A stretch of DNA of 64,000 bases from Shigella phage CT01. The DNA is taken from the sequence record OK018184; one strand, written 5' to 3'. Of the stretch, positions 55,526-64,000 are shown piece after piece; position 1 is the first letter of the stretch; each line of letters opens with the position of its first letter. The notes under the pieces were generated by a model that saw only the letters and a program-made list of their open reading frames with translations, did no database searches and had not been told where the DNA came from. A program made the translations under genes and the position numbers.

Positions 55526-57583
55526 CTACATTTTGAACTTTTTAGACATTTCGTTGATGTTAACCAAAGAAGCCAAGATTTGAGAAACTTCGTTTTCCTC
55601 TTCTTTTGATTCTTCTACAAGGAATTGATTAAATCCAGCCATTGGACGAACTTCACCAGTTTCCATCAGGTGGTCGCCATCATATACCGATTCTTCTAAT
55701 TGTTCAGAAGGAGGAACGATTGTGCCTTCGATTAGATACTTGTTATAAGCAGTTTCTTTCATCATGTACGTACTCACTTTATTAATCTTCAGTAAAATTC
55801 CACGTGGTAAAATAACTTCAGCTTCTGATGGAAATCCTGATAAATGACCCGGAACGATAACTTTGATTCGCTCAGCTCCTTTAATTACCATACCCACGCT
55901 AGTTTCAGCATCTTCATTCGCATAAGCAGAGTGACTGCCCATATGCATTAAATCTTCAGCATCAACTGAACCTTCTCCTTCACCAGAAAATACTGCACCA
56001 GAATCATCTAGAGCCATATAGTTTTTACCATACTCACCGAAGATATTTGGTTTAAGCGATGTGGATACGAAGTTCTTGAAATAGAACATTTTATTTTCAA
56101 TATTATGACGTAAAGTTTTAAAGGTAACTTCTTGTCCACGGTAAAGTGTAGTTCCTGGAGGAAGAACTGATCCTTTGGCAAAGGCAGAATCCATTGTCTC
56201 GATGTGTTTAATAGCTCGTTCCATGTATTCTTCACGTGTAGAATCTGGTTTACCTAAAAGGAACGAGTTCATTTCAACATATGAATCTGCACAATAATCT
56301 TCAATTACATCAGACTCAGCCTGAGTTAATCCTTTTGGAGTTACTTCAGTACTTGCATATTCATACGCTTGAGAAGCAGACTCATTAATCAATTTATAAA
56401 TGCCATTCATGACAAATTGAATAATAGCTACCTTTTCATCTGGCGTGGCTTTAGAACCTTTAACTAAATCATTGACAATTTTCTTAATAACATCAAAACT
56501 ATTAGAAATATTAATGTCAGCAAGATCGCTTAAAATTTTATCGGTTTTATAATCAAAAAATTCTTTATTCTTTAAATATTCTTGAGAACCTTGATATGTT
56601 ATATCGCTCTGTAACTTGATAGATGGATCACGTAAACGTGCATGAGCCAATGCAATATGATTTCGGAAGCTTTCTAGTTCATAATCACTAGATTTAAAAC
56701 GAGAAGCACTTCTCATACCACCGATAGCTCCTTTGCTGAAGTTTGAACCAACCTGAATAACGCCGGAGTTCATTGGTCCTTCTGCTTTATATACCGGAAC
56801 TTTAGATTCAAACTCTTGATATTTCTTAGCAGCGAAGCTATCACCCTGAAGTGAAGCATCGACAGTAGAGTATTGAGCTTGTGCTGCTAATCGACGACTA
56901 ATTTTAGTTTTCTGAATAACAGCTTGATCCGTGCGCTTATCATTTTCTAAAGCAATAGAAGCAGCAACAGCAACAGCTTTAGGAACAGCATTGCCTGTTT
57001 TAACATCTACATAAACATCACCAACCTTTGATTCAACTTTTGTGAATAACTCAGTTGAAATAGGAGGTACACCTGGAATGTCTTCTAAATTGGCATTTTT
57101 ACGGTAAACCATAATATATGCATATTTCTTATCATAGTCCCAGATTTCTTTTAAAAGAACATATCGACCTGCTCCTTTAGTACGTACTAAACGGTCGGCA
57201 ATAACCTGCATTTGACGAGCTGCGCCATTTGTTTTACTTTTTAGTACGCGGAATAAGCATGCGTCAATTTTATACTGTTTCATTGTTTGAAGAGCAGTAT
57301 CAAAAACGGCATTAATGACACCAATTGGATTTCCACCCAAGTTTTTAAGTTTAACTAATGATAGTTTCTCATTAACACCTATCATTACGATATGCATCAT
57401 TTTATCGCCTGGCTTAACATTTTTATTTGTATCACCACCAGAGGTGTATGTACAAAATCTAAATCCAGGAAGCACACTTTCTTCGCCTGCTTGAATAGCA
57501 AAAATTTGAGGTATTTTATGCTTCGGATTTAAGTTAACAACCGGCGCTTCGGCGCCGTCAAATAATTCTGTAATAAGTTCCAT
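55526..57583 (-). CDS. alt: Alt-type ADP-ribosyltransferase, paralog A
   Basis: 685 aa; N-terminal MELITELFD… with I-x-E site; C-terminal R (TLYRGQ), STS (FVSTSL) and E-x-E (SEAEVILPRG) motifs. Confidence 0.8.
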   Translation of the reverse strand: MELITELFDGAEAPVVNLNPKHKIPQIFAIQAGEESVLPGFRFCTYTSGGDTNKNVKPGDKMMHIVMIGVNEKLSLVKLKNLGGNPIGVINAVFDTALQTMKQYKIDACLFRVLKSKTNGAARQMQVIADRLVRTKGAGRYVLLKEIWDYDKKYAYIMVYRKNANLEDIPGVPPISTELFTKVESKVGDVYVDVKTGNAVPKAVAVAASIALENDKRTDQAVIQKTKISRRLAAQAQYSTVDASLQGDSFAAKKYQEFESKVPVYKAEGPMNSGVIQVGSNFSKGAIGGMRSASRFKSSDYELESFRNHIALAHARLRDPSIKLQSDITYQGSQEYLKNKEFFDYKTDKILSDLADINISNSFDVIKKIVNDLVKGSKATPDEKVAIIQFVMNGIYKLINESASQAYEYASTEVTPKGLTQAESDVIEDYCADSYVEMNSFLLGKPDSTREEYMERAIKHIETMDSAFAKGSVLPPGTTLYRGQEVTFKTLRHNIENKMFYFKNFVSTSLKPNIFGEYGKNYMALDDSGAVFSGEGEGSVDAEDLMHMGSHSAYANEDAETSVGMVIKGAERIKVIVPGHLSGFPSEAEVILPRGILLKINKVSTYMMKETAYNKYLIEGTIVPPSEQLEESVYDGDHLMETGEVRPMAGFNQFLVEESKEEENEVSQILASLVNINEMSKKFKM

Positions 57584-57586
57584 GAT

Positions 57587-59683
57587 TTATCCTTGAACGA
57601 ACTTGTAAGGCATGTTTGTAATATCTATGCAAGACGCAATAATTCCAAGAGATGATTCTACTTTCTGTTTAACGTTTGATGAAACAAATGATGCAAAGTC
57701 AACTCTGTCTTCTACTTCAATATCACCTGTCATTGCAACTACTTCGCCGGTTTCCATTAGACGGTCACCGTCATAAATGACTGATTCGGTGAGTTCTTCC
57801 GTAGTCATAACTTCAGCTTGAATGAGTTTTGTATTATTAGATGTTGTTCCGTCATTATTAGAAGCATCAGTTATTTTATTAACTTTGACCATCAATCCGC
57901 GCGGTAGAATAACTTCAGCTTCAGTTGCTATTCCGAGACTTCCTGGATATACAACATTAACTTTATGAGCTCCATCAATTGCCCATCCTATTTGAACTTT
58001 AACGTATTCAGGATTTTCTTTATACGCTCTTATTTCGTTTGGATTAATAGTTATTCCTTCTTCATTTTTATCAACTGTTAATTCATTACGAGCTTCTGGT
58101 TCTAAAAGACCGATACCAGCATGTGTAATTCCAAAACGTCCAAAAATGATAGGAGTTAAAGAAGTAGATACAAAATTTCTGAAATAGAACACTTTATTTT
58201 TAACTAGCGCTTCGTATATAGGAGCAGTCATACTTTGAGCACGATAAACTGTAATGCCTTCTGGTATACGGTCACCATTTTCAAAAGCTGAATCTAAATT
58301 ATTTATCGCAGATTCAATTTCTTTTTCACTCATTACATCATATCGTTCTGGATTGTAGCGGCCTAAAAGAAGATTATTGATGTCAGTATATCCTGATCCA
58401 CAATACTCTCTAATGCCGCGCTTTTGCGATGGAGTATATTTAGAACCATCACGTGCAATGGTAATATCAATCATTGGACCTGCACCAATTCCAGAAAAAC
58501 TATAAATCATTCGTTTGAGGAATTTAGTTTTTGCTGCGTTCCAGGAATTTTTAGTTATTTCTTCCCAGACTTCATCTGGCTGCCCTTTACGAGTTTTATT
58601 ATGTTTATCAAGCCAATTATCTTTATATTCTTCAAAGAATTGATTAACAGCTGCTGCGTATTTCTCTAAACATTTTATTGAAGTAGTTGGTTCATTTTTA
58701 ATCGCATTAAGAATTACATCTTTAATTTTTTCAGAAACTTCATTAACCTCACTTTTTGAAAAGAATTTATAGTCATAGTGAAGTTCATCTGCGGTTCCTT
58801 CGGCAATAATTTTTGCTGCCTTAGTTTTAGAAGCTAATGAATTAATTCCAAGCTTCATTTCTTCTGCTTCTGGAATTAAAGGAGCAGTAGCAGGTTTATT
58901 AAAATTAGCTGCGGTAGATTCATACTTCTGAAATAATTCACTTTCAAATCTAGAAGATTCTAATGATTGACTTTGTGCAATTGCTCTACGGGAAATTTTA
59001 ACTTTAACTATTACAGCTTGGTCAGAACGTTTATCATTTTCTTGCGCAATAGATGCTGCAATTGCTTCATTTTTAGTTACTTGAGCTCCAGTATCTTTAT
59101 TGATATAAACATCGCCGACCTTCGATTCAACTTTAGTAAAGAGCTCGGTACTAATTTCCGGAACTCCTGGAATGTCTTCTAGTGATACATTTTTGCGATG
59201 TATAAGAATATATGCATACTTTTTATCATAATCCCAGAGTTCCTTAAGAAGGACGTATCTGCCACCTGAACGACTACGGATAAGTCTATCAGCAATAAGT
59301 TGAATTTGTCGAGCTTGACCAGCAGTTTTAGACTTAAGAATACGAAGCATGCAGGCATCAATTTTATACTGACGCATCGTCTGCATTGCAACAGTAAAAA
59401 CTGAATTGATATAATTAATTGGGCTTGGACCGAGACCTTTCAATTTAGCAATTGAACCTTTAGCAGTTAATGTAAAAGGAACAATGTGCATCATTTTATC
59501 GCCCATCTTTAGATCACGGTTAGTATCACCTCCAGATGTATAGGTACATAAACGAAAGCCTGGTTGTTCAATTGCGTCATCAACATGAACTGAAAAAATT
59601 TGCGGTATTTTCTTCTTTGGATTTAAGTTTGTAATCGGAAGAGTAGTATCTTCGTCAAATAATTCTGTAATGAGTTCCATCAT
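57587..59683 (-). CDS. alt: Alt-type ADP-ribosyltransferase, paralog B
   Basis: 698 aa; same N-terminal ~230 aa family, diverged middle, C-terminal TVYRAQ / FVSTSL / TEAEVILPRG; 3-bp gap to paralog A. Confidence 0.8.
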   Translation of the reverse strand: MMELITELFDEDTTLPITNLNPKKKIPQIFSVHVDDAIEQPGFRLCTYTSGGDTNRDLKMGDKMMHIVPFTLTAKGSIAKLKGLGPSPINYINSVFTVAMQTMRQYKIDACMLRILKSKTAGQARQIQLIADRLIRSRSGGRYVLLKELWDYDKKYAYILIHRKNVSLEDIPGVPEISTELFTKVESKVGDVYINKDTGAQVTKNEAIAASIAQENDKRSDQAVIVKVKISRRAIAQSQSLESSRFESELFQKYESTAANFNKPATAPLIPEAEEMKLGINSLASKTKAAKIIAEGTADELHYDYKFFSKSEVNEVSEKIKDVILNAIKNEPTTSIKCLEKYAAAVNQFFEEYKDNWLDKHNKTRKGQPDEVWEEITKNSWNAAKTKFLKRMIYSFSGIGAGPMIDITIARDGSKYTPSQKRGIREYCGSGYTDINNLLLGRYNPERYDVMSEKEIESAINNLDSAFENGDRIPEGITVYRAQSMTAPIYEALVKNKVFYFRNFVSTSLTPIIFGRFGITHAGIGLLEPEARNELTVDKNEEGITINPNEIRAYKENPEYVKVQIGWAIDGAHKVNVVYPGSLGIATEAEVILPRGLMVKVNKITDASNNDGTTSNNTKLIQAEVMTTEELTESVIYDGDRLMETGEVVAMTGDIEVEDRVDFASFVSSNVKQKVESSLGIIASCIDITNMPYKFVQG

Positions 59684-59703
59684 ATCCTCTCTAGTGTTTA
59701 TTC

Positions 59704-59711
59704 TATTTATA
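59704..59711 (-). promoter_or_regulatory. late promoter TATAAATA (minus strand) upstream of alt paralog B
   Basis: plus-strand TATTTATA about 20 bp upstream of the alt-B start. Confidence 0.5.
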
Positions 59712-59716
59712 AAATT

Positions 59717-59734
59717 AAAGGCCCGAAGGCCTTT
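59717..59734. terminator. hairpin aaaggcccgaaggccttt
   Basis: perfect GC-rich hairpin between the 62-aa ORF and the alt promoter. Confidence 0.4.
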
Positions 59735-59921
59735 AATAATCTAATGGTAAGAGAGTACGATATATTTCAAACTTTGGCCCTTTTTCATAGGCATCAAATG
59801 TTTCTGTAAATTTATTATAAGCATATGCATCTACAAATTCGAGAATGACTTGTGATACAGAAGTAGAAACATCTCCACCTTCTTTTTGAGCTATAACAAT
59901 TGTTTCTAAGTAAGCTTTCAT
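59733..59921 (-). CDS. small hypothetical protein
   Basis: 62 aa ORF; start overlaps the ligase stop. Confidence 0.4.
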   Translation of the reverse strand: MKAYLETIVIAQKEGGDVSTSVSQVILEFVDAYAYNKFTETFDAYEKGPKFEIYRTLLPLDY

Positions 59922-61378
59922 AGACCAGTTACCTCATGAAAATCACCAAATACATCCTCGAATGTATTAGCTTTAGTTTTATCTTCACGTAAACGAATCG
60001 CAATCGGAAGAAATAATTTAACGTAATCAGTGCGGCCATCAGATTTTAACCAACCGTTGCATTCGCACTCTAGAATTTTTCCAATATAATAATTTTGGTT
60101 TTCCATAATGCGAGTACGGTCAAGTTCATGTGATTTTACACCAGCTTTATCTTTTAAACCTGAACCAGCATTTACCTTAATTTTTCCACACTCTGATTCA
60201 AGAATAAATCCACCTGCTTTAGTAGGGTCTTTACGGTGAGGATAAATTCCTACAATTTTTAAATCAACATCAATTACTTCTTTAAATTTATAGAGATTTT
60301 TTGAACGAGCATTTTCCCACAATCCATCGGTATTTTTGAGAATAATACCTTCAAGACCTCGGTCAATATATTTTTTATAAATTACCTTAGCTTCATCTAG
60401 GTTATTTACTACCTGGTTTTCAATTAAAATTACTTTATCATATCCTGATGTCATTTGTTCTAGTTTAGAAAAACGTACATCATATTTTAAACGAAACGCC
60501 GGAAGACCGTATATTTCTACCAACGGGACATAATCCCAGACCTGAAACTTCATACATTTGGCTTCTTTTTCTGAAATAGTTCCCTTTAAAGATTTATTGG
60601 CGATTCCATTAGAAGCAGTACGAGATTCAGCTACTTCAGCAAACTCTTTAACTTTACTATTTTCAGGAGAGTCAAAAAGAAAATCTAGGCCTTCTGGCTC
60701 CTTTTCAACTTGCTCATGGTATACCAATTCGCCATCAATTAACACACCTTCTGGATGAATCTGGCGGGCTTCAGCAGTCATTTTGATTAGATCTTCCTTA
60801 AGAAGATCTAATCCTAGATATTCATTACCAGCTCGCGATAAAAGACGAACATCATCTAATTCATCGCCTCGGACTTCAGCAAAACACCGAGCTCCATCTG
60901 CTTTTAACTGCGCAAAAGCTGGAAACTTGATATTCTTACTAATGCCTTTTTCATCATAAGAACTTGCCAGCATTTGAGGTTGTTCAGGAATTAAACCTGG
61001 CCAAACTTTGTTTGCAATAGATACTGAAGCACCACATTCAAGGTCTCGCATCATAACTCGACGCAAAACTTCAACATCATCCTTTTTACCATCGGTGATA
61101 TATCCAGTTAATTCCTCAATTGCTGCATTGCCAGTTAATTTCCGAGTAGCTAACGTGAATTCAATGAAGTCAAGCATATCGGTAATAGTCAGCATTCCAA
61201 AACTCTGGGTAGCAATACCAGGTTTAGGCCATTTCTTGATATAATACTGTAACCCACGAGAATAAGTCAGACGATATACTCGTTTAAGCAATTCATTATC
61301 TTTATTCTTTTCAAGAATTGCTTGCTTCTGCTTAGTTGAACCAATAGATGCTATTTCATTTAGAATTTCAAGAATCAT
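59918..61378 (-). CDS. 30: ATP-dependent DNA ligase gp30
   Basis: 486 aa; adenylation motif KADGARC; T4 gp30 size. Confidence 0.9.
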   Translation of the reverse strand: MILEILNEIASIGSTKQKQAILEKNKDNELLKRVYRLTYSRGLQYYIKKWPKPGIATQSFGMLTITDMLDFIEFTLATRKLTGNAAIEELTGYITDGKKDDVEVLRRVMMRDLECGASVSIANKVWPGLIPEQPQMLASSYDEKGISKNIKFPAFAQLKADGARCFAEVRGDELDDVRLLSRAGNEYLGLDLLKEDLIKMTAEARQIHPEGVLIDGELVYHEQVEKEPEGLDFLFDSPENSKVKEFAEVAESRTASNGIANKSLKGTISEKEAKCMKFQVWDYVPLVEIYGLPAFRLKYDVRFSKLEQMTSGYDKVILIENQVVNNLDEAKVIYKKYIDRGLEGIILKNTDGLWENARSKNLYKFKEVIDVDLKIVGIYPHRKDPTKAGGFILESECGKIKVNAGSGLKDKAGVKSHELDRTRIMENQNYYIGKILECECNGWLKSDGRTDYVKLFLPIAIRLREDKTKANTFEDVFGDFHEVTGL

Positions 61379-61644
61379 TGCTCATCCTTCAAGGTTTGGT
61401 TTACAGCTCTATTATAAATCAATTCATCATTAAGCTCAGGCAAAGACTTATGATATGTAGTTCTAACTTTATTTCCTTGCATCCAGTGCTTGACGTAAAT
61501 GAAACCTTGCTCTACACATTTTTTAAAAATTCGTTCATCCTTTTGAGCACGGAACTCTGGATTACATCTAAAAAATTGATTTACGTGACCGTAATCACGT
61601 GTAGTATTACCTTCATTTTCATAAATAGTATGAACAACAAACAT
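61375..61644 (-). CDS. hypothetical protein (30.1 position)
   Basis: 89 aa ORF coupled to the ligase start. Confidence 0.45.
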   Translation of the reverse strand: MFVVHTIYENEGNTTRDYGHVNQFFRCNPEFRAQKDERIFKKCVEQGFIYVKHWMQGNKVRTTYHKSLPELNDELIYNRAVNQTLKDEQ

Positions 61645-62576
61645 TAGAATGCTCCTTGAAAAATATTATCACCACTAGTAGGTCTATTATACAAATACTC
61701 TATGCCACCAGGTTTAATATAGTTCCATGTCTGAAACGGATGTGTCTGATATGGATGATATAGATGATTATTAGGTCTATTATACAAATACTCTATGCCA
61801 CCAGGTTTAATATAGTTCCATGTCTGAAACGGATGTGTCTGATATGGATGATATAGATGATTATAAGGATTTAATCCAGGCGTTCTCCAGGTAGTGTTCC
61901 AAGGAAAAGAATCGTTTTTAACCATCTTCTCAATTAAATCTTTTATAGCTTTTTCACTATCAAAACTTTCTTTATTTTCCTTCGGCGAAAAAAGCTTATT
62001 TTCTACATCATTCCATGTATAAACTCGCTGCGCAGTTTTTGGAATATTGTCACGCTCTCCTCGAGCCATCCAATAAACAGGAACATTTAATATTTCACTC
62101 GCATGATCGCAGTGATGAGCGAGATCGTCAATATAACAAATTACGTTATATTTCTCTTTTGCCTTTTTGAACAGCTCTTCTTTTGAAGAATCATGACCAC
62201 ACATCATTACTTCCGAGAAAGCACCAGGAAAAAGAGCATTCAAATTAAATTGACGATTCAACAGAGCGTCAATAGAATCACCCAATGCTGTAACAGCTAC
62301 AAAATTATAATCTTCTTTTAATTTGTTAATTACACACAGGGCATCTTTATACGGAGACAAGTAACGAATAAAATCTGAACGATTGTATTTTTCAATTAAC
62401 TTGACGCCAAGTTCTTCGTCACAATTAAAGAGTTTACCCGGAGAAATAAATTTCTCATCTTGGATCATTTTTAAAATATGTTCTAATGGAAGATTATATT
62501 TCTGAGCAAAATAAGGAAGGCCTGATTGCCAGCTTAAACATACTCCATCAATATCAGTTAAAATAGTTGGCTTCAT
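61644..62576 (-). CDS. HAD-superfamily nucleotidase-like protein with duplicated C-terminal motif
   Basis: 310 aa; HAD motif I DIDGV near the N-terminus, YIDDLAHH later; C-terminus has a 31-aa Tyr/His/Pro-rich unit twice. Confidence 0.5.
   Translation of the reverse strand: MKPTILTDIDGVCLSWQSGLPYFAQKYNLPLEHILKMIQDEKFISPGKLFNCDEELGVKLIEKYNRSDFIRYLSPYKDALCVINKLKEDYNFVAVTALGDSIDALLNRQFNLNALFPGAFSEVMMCGHDSSKEELFKKAKEKYNVICYIDDLAHHCDHASEILNVPVYWMARGERDNIPKTAQRVYTWNDVENKLFSPKENKESFDSEKAIKDLIEKMVKNDSFPWNTTWRTPGLNPYNHLYHPYQTHPFQTWNYIKPGGIEYLYNRPNNHLYHPYQTHPFQTWNYIKPGGIEYLYNRPTSGDNIFQGAF
61681..61866. repeat. 93-bp in-frame tandem duplication inside the HAD-like gene
   Basis: 61681-61773 and 61774-61866 are near-identical direct repeats (ggtctattatacaaatactctatgccaccagg…). 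Confidence 0.8.
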
Positions 62577-63037
62577 AGAGAGTCTCTTAATAGGTTTAAC
62601 ACATCAATAAATTCAGCTTCGGTTAGTATTGTATCATCTTTTGTTAGACCACTAGCCATGCTGTGCTTCAAAACTTTTCCTTTCGAGGCTTGTAATGCAT
62701 CACGAAAGCCCCTGTTTTGGATTGCTGCTTCAAAATATGCATTTGTGTATAATTCTTTCCATGCTGGAGAGTATCTTGAAAATGGAACTCCAAGCCAAAA
62801 GAGGGTCCCACGGTCCTGAGCTCTAGCATAAGACCTTCCAGCTTGTTGGGCGGCAAGCCCGGACATCCCAAATATACGTCTTTGCTGTTCAACATTTTTC
62901 ACCTTACATCCTTGGAGGAATCCTTCGAGACCTCCAAATTGGATACCATCCATAACGAAAGGCCATTGAGCGAAATTGCTTAATGCACATGATGGCCATC
63001 TAAAATTGCTTCTTATCTCTAGCTCAGACATTTTCAA
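62573..63037 (-). CDS. NADAR (YbiA-like) domain protein
   Basis: 154 aa; signature …LSNFAQWPFVMDGIQFGGLEGFLQGCK… resembles the YbiA/NADAR core …FSNFAAWPIKVDGKTWPTSEHYFQAQK…. Confidence 0.5.
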   Translation of the reverse strand: MKMSELEIRSNFRWPSCALSNFAQWPFVMDGIQFGGLEGFLQGCKVKNVEQQRRIFGMSGLAAQQAGRSYARAQDRGTLFWLGVPFSRYSPAWKELYTNAYFEAAIQNRGFRDALQASKGKVLKHSMASGLTKDDTILTEAEFIDVLNLLRDSL

Positions 63038-63230
63038 TACTTATAATTTCAACATCAGCCCAATGACCATAGCAAGGAAGACGAAATTCAACTGGCCAGT
63101 TAGGGTCCTTTTCTAATATAATAGACTTAACTTGTGGTTCTTCATGTTCATCGGTATACGGACCTTTATATGTTACTTTATATGTGACCTTAATGTACTG
63201 AATTCCAAAAATCTTATTAATTATATTCAT
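63024..63230 (-). CDS. small hypothetical protein
   Basis: 68 aa ORF, coupled in the operon. Confidence 0.4.
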   Translation of the reverse strand: MNIINKIFGIQYIKVTYKVTYKGPYTDEHEEPQVKSIILEKDPNWPVEFRLPCYGHWADVEIISIENV

Positions 63231-63424
63231 ACTAATTCCTTTAATCCATAGATAGGAGATAATTCATCGCCCATACGAAGGTCTTCATTTCCATCTACCC
63301 AAGAAACAATATAAGCTTCTTTTATTTGAACGTCTCTCCATTTAAATGCAGGCAAAACCTTAGAAATTAATCCAGGTATACCGACTCCCTTTAATTCAAC
63401 AGTTTGACCCAAAAAGAATTTCAT
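63227..63424 (-). CDS. small hypothetical protein
   Basis: 65 aa ORF, coupled in the operon. Confidence 0.4.
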   Translation of the reverse strand: MKFFLGQTVELKGVGIPGLISKVLPAFKWRDVQIKEAYIVSWVDGNEDLRMGDELSPIYGLKELV

Positions 63425-63762
63425 TAGAACCTCATCTGAAATCCGTGCGATTTAACATTACCACCACCAATGTCAGAAATATTAATTTCACGCGCAATTG
63501 AAGGGTCAATGTCAATTTCACGATTAAGTTTAGTGATAGCTAAAGTATCACGCCCATTTACAGTACGGAACTCTAAAGGGCAGACTACATTAACATAGTT
63601 TTTAATCGATTCACTAGTAGGCTGCAAATGAGCAGGAAGGTCTTTAGGCGCCTTAGAGAAAACCACTTCACAGAAATTTTTGCGGGTATCAAAATAAGTA
63701 GTCATAAACATAACATTTTCCTCAGTAAGGGGCCAAAGCCCCTCATTTATTTTAAATATCAA
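63424..63762 (-). CDS. hypothetical protein
   Basis: 112 aa ORF. Confidence 0.45.
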   Translation of the reverse strand: MIFKINEGLWPLTEENVMFMTTYFDTRKNFCEVVFSKAPKDLPAHLQPTSESIKNYVNVVCPLEFRTVNGRDTLAITKLNREIDIDPSIAREINISDIGGGNVKSHGFQMRF

Positions 63763-63982
63763 ATTCGTTAAGAACTACATCAAAGATTGCTTCAAGATGC
63801 TCAGGTTTAGCTCTGTTACTCAGAATATGACGAATCCAAGTTTTAACCAAAAGCTTGCGATTAACGCCATTCCAGCAAGGATGAGTCCCTAAATCGCGTT
63901 CACGGAAATCATCATCCAGAGCGATTTTAAAGTTGGAACCTTCCATCGTGATTGAAACCGTGATACCGTTTTCAAATCGCAT
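63752..63982 (-). CDS. hypothetical protein
   Basis: 76 aa ORF at the window edge. Confidence 0.4.
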   Translation of the reverse strand: MRFENGITVSITMEGSNFKIALDDDFRERDLGTHPCWNGVNRKLLVKTWIRHILSNRAKPEHLEAIFDVVLNEFDI

Positions 63983-64000
63983 ATAAACGTAGTTAGGAGT

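Follow-up and report, generated by a model that had tools for sequence, protein, structure and literature searches.

Gene content and organization of the 30.3 region

The analyzed DNA, here called the window, is a stretch of 64,000 nucleotides from Shigella phage CT01 (sequence record OK018184). It is the DNA of a T4/T2-like Tequatrovirus. A 3-kb stretch around gene 30.3 shares 99.6% identity with Escherichia phage DCP2 and 95-99% with hundreds of Tequatrovirus records. At its right end the window is colinear with T4, and the genes on the minus strand follow the T4 order, which is 30.6-30.5-30.4-30.3-30.2-30.1-30 (DNA ligase)-alt.1-alt, and a second alt gene comes next. The features at gene 30.3 and at the boundary of alt are the following:

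62573..63031, minus strand: coding sequence of adfN (gene 30.3), 152 aa plus TGA stop, predicted from the sequence to encode a NADAR-fold DNA ADP-ribosylglycohydrolase
63024..63031, minus strand: overlap ATGTCTGA between the stop of gene 30.4 and the start of gene 30.3, as read from the sequence
62573..62576, minus strand: ATGA overlap between the stop (TGA) of gene 30.3 and the start (ATG) of gene 30.2, as read from the sequence
59704..59733, minus strand: hairpin AAAGGCCTTCGGGCCTTT with T-run, then a match to the T4 late-promoter consensus TATAAATA; boundary of alt, outside gene 30.3

An uninterrupted ORF is located on the minus strand at 62573..63037, and its translation holds the motif LSNFAQWPFVMDGIQFGGLEGFLQGCK. 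The earlier note had quoted this motif from an ORF of 154 aa. Both the ORF and the motif are present and the frame is open throughout, but the length has to be corrected. The program-called start is a TTG at 63037, and an ATG is found two codons further in, at 63031. This ATG is almost certainly the true start of gene 30.3, which results in a protein of 152 aa, because T4 gp30.3 is annotated from the same ATG, full-length homologues open with MSELEIRSN, and the published numbering of E36 and K43 then lands on Glu and Lys. At the other end of the gene, the ATGA overlap is consistent with translational coupling of 30.3 to the downstream gene 30.2, which encodes a HAD-family hydrolase.

The protein shows 149 of 152 identical amino acids (98%) when compared to T4 gp30.3/AdfN. 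It has the same length, the same overlaps with 30.4 and 30.2, and the same place in the string of 30.x genes and the ligase gene. The differences are three conservative substitutions (M56L, R107K and M125I), none of which affects E36, K43 or H123. At the DNA level the identity to T4 is 95.4%. Of the nucleotide changes, 17 are synonymous and 4 non-synonymous, which argues that the 30.3 frame is under purifying selection. T4 is also annotated with an internal out-of-frame ORF, 30.3', which is open in the window. It differs from T4 in 11 of 75 residues, compared to 3 of 152 in the 30.3 frame, and was not accepted as a conserved coding feature.

The assignment to the gp30.3 family is clear. The Pfam family PF08010 (Phage_30_3) was matched with an E-value of 3.9e-70 and 234.5 bits (cut-off 36) over profile positions 1-138 of 138, and PHROG 652 was matched with an E-value of 1.8e-51. 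By tblastn, homologues of gp30.3 were found in 1510 of 50,697 phage records. They occur in T4-like phages of Escherichia, Klebsiella, Shigella, Aeromonas, Acinetobacter, Vibrio and other hosts. The gene is the already known and characterized T4 gene 30.3/adfN, and nothing novel is added to it by the window.

The downstream neighbour gp30.2 is a HAD-superfamily hydrolase, in which D8xD10, T96, K132 and D150-D151 are invariant. It is nearest to 5'(3')-deoxyribonucleotidase-like HAD enzymes. In its predicted model the N-terminal 200-225 residues are confident, and the C-terminal tail appears disordered. In contrast to T4, gene 30.2 of the window, as assembled, contains an extra 31-aa tandem repeat, encoded by a 93-bp duplication within 61679..61868. 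The junction of this duplication was searched in other phages; the best matches among 344 records were two-piece matches, and none of the records listed shows the duplication.

The window also differs from T4 in its alt genes, two of which are intact, whereas T4 has one alt gene and a remnant. According to the earlier note, 30.3 is located two genes from the alt pair. The distance is larger, as four ORFs (30.2, 30.1, the ligase gene 30 and alt.1) with about 2.9 kb lie between them. Directly past alt.1, a GC-rich hairpin followed by a T-run was identified at 59733..59712 on the minus strand. The late-promoter match TATAAATA at 59704..59711 (minus strand) is located about 20 nt ahead of the alt start codon (ATG, 59683). 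Because of this hairpin, the T-run and the late promoter, alt and the 30.x genes are probably separate transcription units, and from its sequence context alt appears to form a late unit of its own. In T4, the Alt protein is packaged into the virion. A scan for sigma-70 promoters and terminators over 59500..64000 gave sites that were no commoner than in shuffled sequence, and is uninformative on the promoter of 30.3.

Relationship to the NADAR superfamily

The earlier note described the product as a NADAR-type protein tied to the reversal of ADP-ribosylation and named a search with PF08719 as a check. In this search the window protein gave no match even at E ≤ 1; its Pfam family is PF08010. No NADAR match was obtained in the NCBIfam scan of the 30.3 protein, and no DarG model was matched in the PADLOC scan. 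Direct scans with Pfam, NCBIfam and PADLOC are limited in sensitivity, and profile and fold methods were needed for this protein.

With such methods the relationship becomes visible. PF08719 was matched by 19 of 52 diverse members of the gp30.3 family, with a best E-value of 1.5e-7, and several family members are named 'YbiA (DUF1768 family)' by JGI. Reciprocal matches of PF08010 are present on some proteins of the YbiA family. When the gp30.3 family profile was compared to the PDB sequences, the sole match was E. coli YbiA (2b3w, E 0.0019). A comparison of the gp30.3 family with the YbiA-family alignment by hhalign resulted in a probability of 97.5% and an E-value of 7.3e-12 over 126 columns. 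The predicted model of the 30.3 protein, in which the core fold begins at residue 3 of 152, gave 2b3w, 8bau and 8bat as the top three Foldseek matches. Based on these comparisons, the 30.3 protein is assigned to the NADAR superfamily with its YbiA fold. The classification by the earlier note was right, by way of transitive matches, profile-profile comparison and the conservation of Glu36 and Lys43.

Catalytic residues and C-terminal helix

The positions of the putative catalytic residues and of the C-terminal helix in the window are the following:

62924..62926, minus strand: Glu36 codon GAA, predicted catalytic glutamate, equivalent to YbiA E48, PnNADAR E43 and E. coli C7 NADAR E88
62903..62905, minus strand: Lys43 codon AAG, predicted phosphate-coordinating lysine, equivalent to YbiA K55, PnNADAR K50 and C7 NADAR K95
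62663..62665, minus strand: His123 codon CAC, clade-specific histidine in the last strand, in place of Glu (YbiA family) or Asp (DarG1 family)
62579..62620, minus strand: C-terminal alpha-helix, residues 138-151, intact in the predicted model

The mapping of catalytic residues, which had been proposed as a further check, supports the assignment. Glu36 and Lys43 are retained; the third catalytic acid is not conserved, and the clade-specific His123 is found instead. Glu36 and His123 are invariant in 52 homologues, and Lys43 is present in at least 90% of them. The alignment of E36 with YbiA E48 and of K43 with YbiA K55 was obtained by both HMMER and hhalign. The E36A and K43A mutants of T4 AdfN are impaired (PMC11825919). 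E43 and K50 of PnNADAR and E88 and K95 of the E. coli C7 NADAR are required for hydrolysis of guanine-ADPr, and the role of K95 in the C7 protein has been described (PMC11543638).

The third position is less exactly placed. In the hhalign alignment, His123 is set opposite YbiA H126, one residue past E125, with a register that is uncertain by one residue; the YbiA E125 position falls on Lys122/His123 with the same one-residue ambiguity. Proteins of the YbiA family use Glu as the third catalytic acid, DarT1-linked NADARs use Asp, and phage NADARs have His at the position where the YbiA family has Glu (PMC11125620). According to a later study, the phage NADAR clade and its histidine were recognized bioinformatically in 2012 by de Souza and Aravind (cited in PMC11125620). 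In the proposed mechanism, Glu36 would be in contact with the distal ribose and Lys43 with the diphosphate, and His123 would stand where other NADARs have their third catalytic acid.

The adfN allele of RB69 is frameshifted, 15 residues short and inactive or weaker, the C-terminal truncation is impaired, and full activity depends on the C-terminal helix (PMC11825919). Truncated gp30.3 clusters are also found in public data, e.g., 109-aa and 126-aa forms. It could be asked whether the ORF in CT01 is a decayed or inactive allele of this kind and inconsequential for the phage. We consider this extremely unlikely, and at the sequence level it is refuted. In the window, the gene encodes all 152 aa, and the C-terminus is complete compared to T4, with no truncation of the RB69 type. 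The residues E36, K43 and H123 as well as the C-terminal helix are intact and common to both proteins. The identity to the active T4 protein is 98% and the nucleotide changes are mostly synonymous. Judged from its sequence, the ORF is presumably an intact, active adfN allele.

Function of T4 AdfN and proposed role in CT01

The function of the T4 protein has been described in detail. Resistance of T-even phages to DarTG1 was mapped to gene 30.3, which was renamed adfN (Johannesman, Awasthi, Carlson and LeRoux, Nat Commun 2025; PMC11825919). In this study, T4 and T2 without adfN formed no plaques on DarTG1 cells, RB69 was rescued on DarTG1 cells by ectopic adfN, and T4 gp30.3 was found to be necessary and sufficient against DarTG1. 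Purified T4 AdfN strips ADP-ribose from DNA modified by DarT1, and AdfN is without effect on DarTG2, which forms thymidine-ADPr (PMC11825919). Independently, Cihlova et al. (Toxins 2024; PMC11125620) showed that guanosine-ADPr is hydrolysed by gp30.3 in vitro and that thymidine-ADPr is not. In a transposon screen, 30.3 was dispensable on K-12, and insertions were lost only on DarTG1 hosts (HIDEN-SEQ preprint).

T4 AdfN does not rescue uninfected cells from DarT1 toxicity, and non-T-even phages were helped only weakly (PMC11125620, PMC11825919). The authors infer that a further T-even factor is required by AdfN (PMC11825919). As AdfN is weak outside T-even infection, the simple picture of a free-standing eraser is incomplete.

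A mechanism can be proposed for CT01 on this basis. The DarT1 toxin of E. coli carrying DarTG1 would ADP-ribosylate guanines of the phage DNA, by which replication would be blocked. AdfN would be produced from the early/middle 30.x gene string and, with its NADAR/YbiA fold, would cleave the N-glycosidic bond that links ADP-ribose to the guanine N2 in DNA. Removal of the adduct would allow replication of the phage to proceed. By analogy with T4, we infer that the CT01 copy shares the activity of T4 AdfN, i.e., hydrolysis of guanine-ADPr and protection against DarTG1. Given the 98% identity to the active T4 protein and the intact residues, the best explanation is an intact adfN allele, whose product would be an orphan-antitoxin-like enzyme that erases the marks of host DarT1. 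We estimate a probability of about 90% that the ORF is the orthologue of T4 gene 30.3 (adfN, anti-DarT factor NADAR) and works as an anti-DarTG1 DNA de-ADP-ribosylase.

Another possible role would be that gp30.3 mainly acts on small molecules, either as a YbiA-like N-glycosidase on intermediates of the riboflavin pathway or by scavenging soluble immune signals derived from ADPr or RNA-repair by-products. Such a role would agree with the position of the gene next to the ligase, the HAD hydrolase and the pseT/rnlA repair genes, and the direct neighbour gp30.2 is a 5'(3')-deoxyribonucleotidase-like HAD hydrolase. The nearest solved structures include YbiA, which is an N-glycosidase. Furthermore, phage NADARs were proposed to favour low-molecular-weight ADPr derivatives (Iyer et al. 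2022; PMC9503650). Nevertheless, a main activity on small molecules is highly improbable here. Instead of the catalytic Glu characteristic of the YbiA family, 52 of 52 relatives carry His, and for the T4 protein there is direct biochemical and genetic evidence for DNA-ADPr as a substrate (PMC11825919, PMC11125620, HIDEN-SEQ preprint). In addition, no phenotype is seen on hosts without DarTG1 (PMC11825919, HIDEN-SEQ preprint).

Relation of 30.3 to the alt genes

The position of 30.3 near the alt genes had led the earlier note to suggest a writer/eraser pairing between the protein and the two ADP-ribosyltransferases encoded by alt. In this case gp30.3 would be an eraser for the ADP-ribosyltransferases (ARTs) of the phage itself, i.e., the two Alt paralogues and possibly ModA/ModB, and would tune or recycle their modifications. 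The substrates proposed for this role are arginine-linked ADP-ribose or ADPr-linked RNA on host proteins. Several observations would agree with such a role. Gene 30.3 and the two alt genes share one strand and lie within some 3 kb of each other, and the arrangement 30.3-30.2-30-alt is also found in Acinetobacter phage fHyAci03. That T4-like NADARs are associated with ARTs by genomic context was noted earlier by Iyer et al. 2022 (PMC9503650). The need of T4 AdfN for a further T-even factor (PMC11825919) would be compatible as well. Our literature searches turned up neither later work on AdfN nor a report in which gp30.3 was tried on Arg-ADPr.

However, four ORFs, the hairpin with its T-run and the late promoter TATAAATA separate 30.3 from alt, and the linkage of the two genes is lost in the more distant T4-like phages KP27, AP1 and D483. 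In fHyAci03 the order 30.3-30.2-30 is retained, but alt is located on the opposite strand. Klebsiella phage KP27 contains 30.3, 30.2 and the ligase gene with no Alt homologue within 20 kb. In Aeromonas phage AP1, 30.3 stands alone beside baseplate genes, and alt, the ligase gene and 30.2 are absent nearby. In Vibrio phage D483, 30.3 is found beside gp47/gp46, and an Alt-like gene is located 6.5 kb away on the other strand. The numbers of phage records also differ, with 1510 for gp30.3 homologues compared to 1222 for Alt, and in Klebsiella phages with 272 compared to 163. All NADARs tested to date are specific for guanine-ADPr (PMC11125620, PMC11543638). The sole phenotype of adfN loss is sensitivity to DarTG1, and the gene is dispensable on K-12 (PMC11825919, HIDEN-SEQ preprint).

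An eraser role of gp30.3 for the phage ARTs therefore has very little probability. With probably separate transcription units, a linkage that is lost in more distant phages and DNA guanine-ADPr as the known substrate, the pairing of 30.3 with alt is unsupported rather than disproved. The comparison shows that the closeness of 30.3 to alt is inherited T4 synteny and not a functional pairing.

We considered gp30.2 as a candidate for the further factor on which AdfN depends, but this is speculative, as it has no mechanistic tie to ADP-ribose and its synteny tracks the ligase. In Vibrio phage D483, 30.2 goes with the ligase gene and not with 30.3. Since the linkage of 30.3 is inconsistent across distant T4-like phages, synteny nominates no partner for AdfN. 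It is very unlikely that the T-even partner of AdfN is a neighbour (gp30.2 or an Alt ART), or else that AdfN has a second substrate made by the phage ARTs (Arg-ADPr or ADPr-linked RNA). If one of these were true, the neighbourhood of 30.3 and alt would be functionally meaningful after all.

Comparison with other NADAR proteins and anti-DarT factors

The DarG1 antitoxins (BC4488 family; e.g., the E. coli C7 NADAR and the Geobacter lovleyi NADAR 8BAT) are linked to DarT1. In contrast, 30.3 is a phage orphan; its neighbours are the T4 genes 30.4 and 30.2 (HAD hydrolase), and no DarT1 toxin gene is adjacent. DarG1 antitoxins have an N-terminal extension and an Asp in the last strand, whereas the 30.3 protein lacks the extension, carries His instead and has no PADLOC match. 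T4 gp30.3 is unable to replace DarG1 in uninfected cells (PMC11125620, PMC11825919).

E. coli YbiA and its family (PF08719; 2B3W) share about 20% identity with the 30.3 protein. The YbiA family proper consists of N-glycosidases of riboflavin intermediates and is characterized by the last-strand glutamate E125. This glutamate is absent from the 30.3 protein, which has His123 there. Unlike phage 30.3, ybiA belongs to the host, where it is a housekeeping gene in an SOS operon and is tied to riboflavin intermediates.

Other phage proteins, namely AdfN-Bas32, AdfN-Bas60, AdfA (gp61.2) and AdfM (Tk.4), follow the same strategy as 30.3, which is the phage-encoded neutralization of DNA ADP-ribosylation by DarT (PMC11825919, HIDEN-SEQ preprint). 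[quoted passage not shown] AdfA is not an enzyme of the NADAR fold. AdfM is a macrodomain that acts on thymidine-ADPr and against DarTG2, in which it differs from 30.3.

The ORF in the window can be annotated with confidence as an intact, presumably active adfN allele. It is predicted that the phage resists E. coli strains carrying DarTG1, which is relevant to the prediction of host range for therapeutic Tequatroviruses.

A HAD-superfamily hydrolase gene downstream of adfN

Features of the gene 30.2 region:
61644..62576, minus strand: gene 30.2 (gp30.2), HAD-superfamily hydrolase
61679..61868, minus strand: 93-bp tandem duplication in gene 30.2, 2.0 copies, 98% match

The stop codon of adfN overlaps the start codon of gene 30.2 in the sequence ATGA. 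The product, gp30.2, is labelled "hypothetical" in nearly all records. All four catalytic motifs of the HAD-superfamily hydrolase (D8xD10, T96, K132 and D150D151) are invariant, and the nearest folds are 5'(3')-deoxyribonucleotidase-like enzymes (3bwv, 2jao, 2i7d). The protein comprises 310 aa, compared with 278 aa in T4. A 93-bp duplication doubles the 31-aa segment NHLYHPYQTHPFQTWNYIKPGGIEYLYNRP, which is located in the disordered C-terminal tail. The matching region is 93 bp shorter in all of the 15 closest phage records, which therefore lack the duplication. It could be a genuine recent event or an assembly artefact.

The internal frame 30.3' and truncated or fused gp30.3 products

Feature within gene 30.3:
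62668..62895, minus strand: ORF 30.3', out-of-frame, 75 aa, annotated in T4

The reading frame of 30.3' is open in the window phage, as in T4. Between these two phages 11 of its 75 residues differ, whereas only 3 of 152 differ in the overlapping 30.3 frame. 30.3' thus shows no sign of coding constraint, because the nucleotide changes which alter it are synonymous in 30.3.

In many public T4-like genomes and contigs the gp30.3 product is truncated or fused (database clusters P0004-P0007, P0013-P0018 and P0035). Shortened examples are a 109-aa form in phage SV76 and forms of 126 aa; fused examples carry PF11097, PF06919 or PF06019. This suggests either that adfN has repeatedly been lost or frameshifted in nature, as in the RB69 allele, or that there are errors of annotation or assembly.

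Distant T4-like phages have other NAD/ADPr-related genes in these same early regions. According to the depositor annotations, these are a Sir2-like gene in Vibrio phage D483 (L005, 2270..2947) and a Nudix hydrolase gene adjoining pseT in Acinetobacter phage fHyAci03 (L002, 16866..17393).

Late promoters and the two alt paralogues

Features of the alt region:
59704..59733, minus strand: hairpin AAAGGCCTTCGGGCCTTT with T-run, then late-promoter consensus TATAAATA
57587..59683, minus strand: upstream alt paralogue, 698 aa, full-length
55526..57583, minus strand: downstream alt paralogue, 685 aa, full-length

The hairpin and its T-run lie directly 3' of alt.1, and the T4 late-promoter consensus follows about 20 nt ahead of the alt ATG. 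This terminator-like site was absent from the consensus-scan output. The whole window contains 22 copies of the late-promoter consensus, where 9.7 would be expected, and none of 100 shuffles attains 22. The majority are plus-strand copies located in the interval from 32 to 45 kb, which is consistent with late structural-gene clusters.

The two alt paralogues share 41% identity. The upstream one is 98.6% identical to T2 alt and 70% identical to T4 Alt, compared with 42% to T4 Alt for the downstream one. The first ~116 residues of the downstream paralogue, however, show 95-98% identity to the alt.-1/alt.-2 remnant of T4. The window phage therefore retains intact the second alt copy that was lost in T4.
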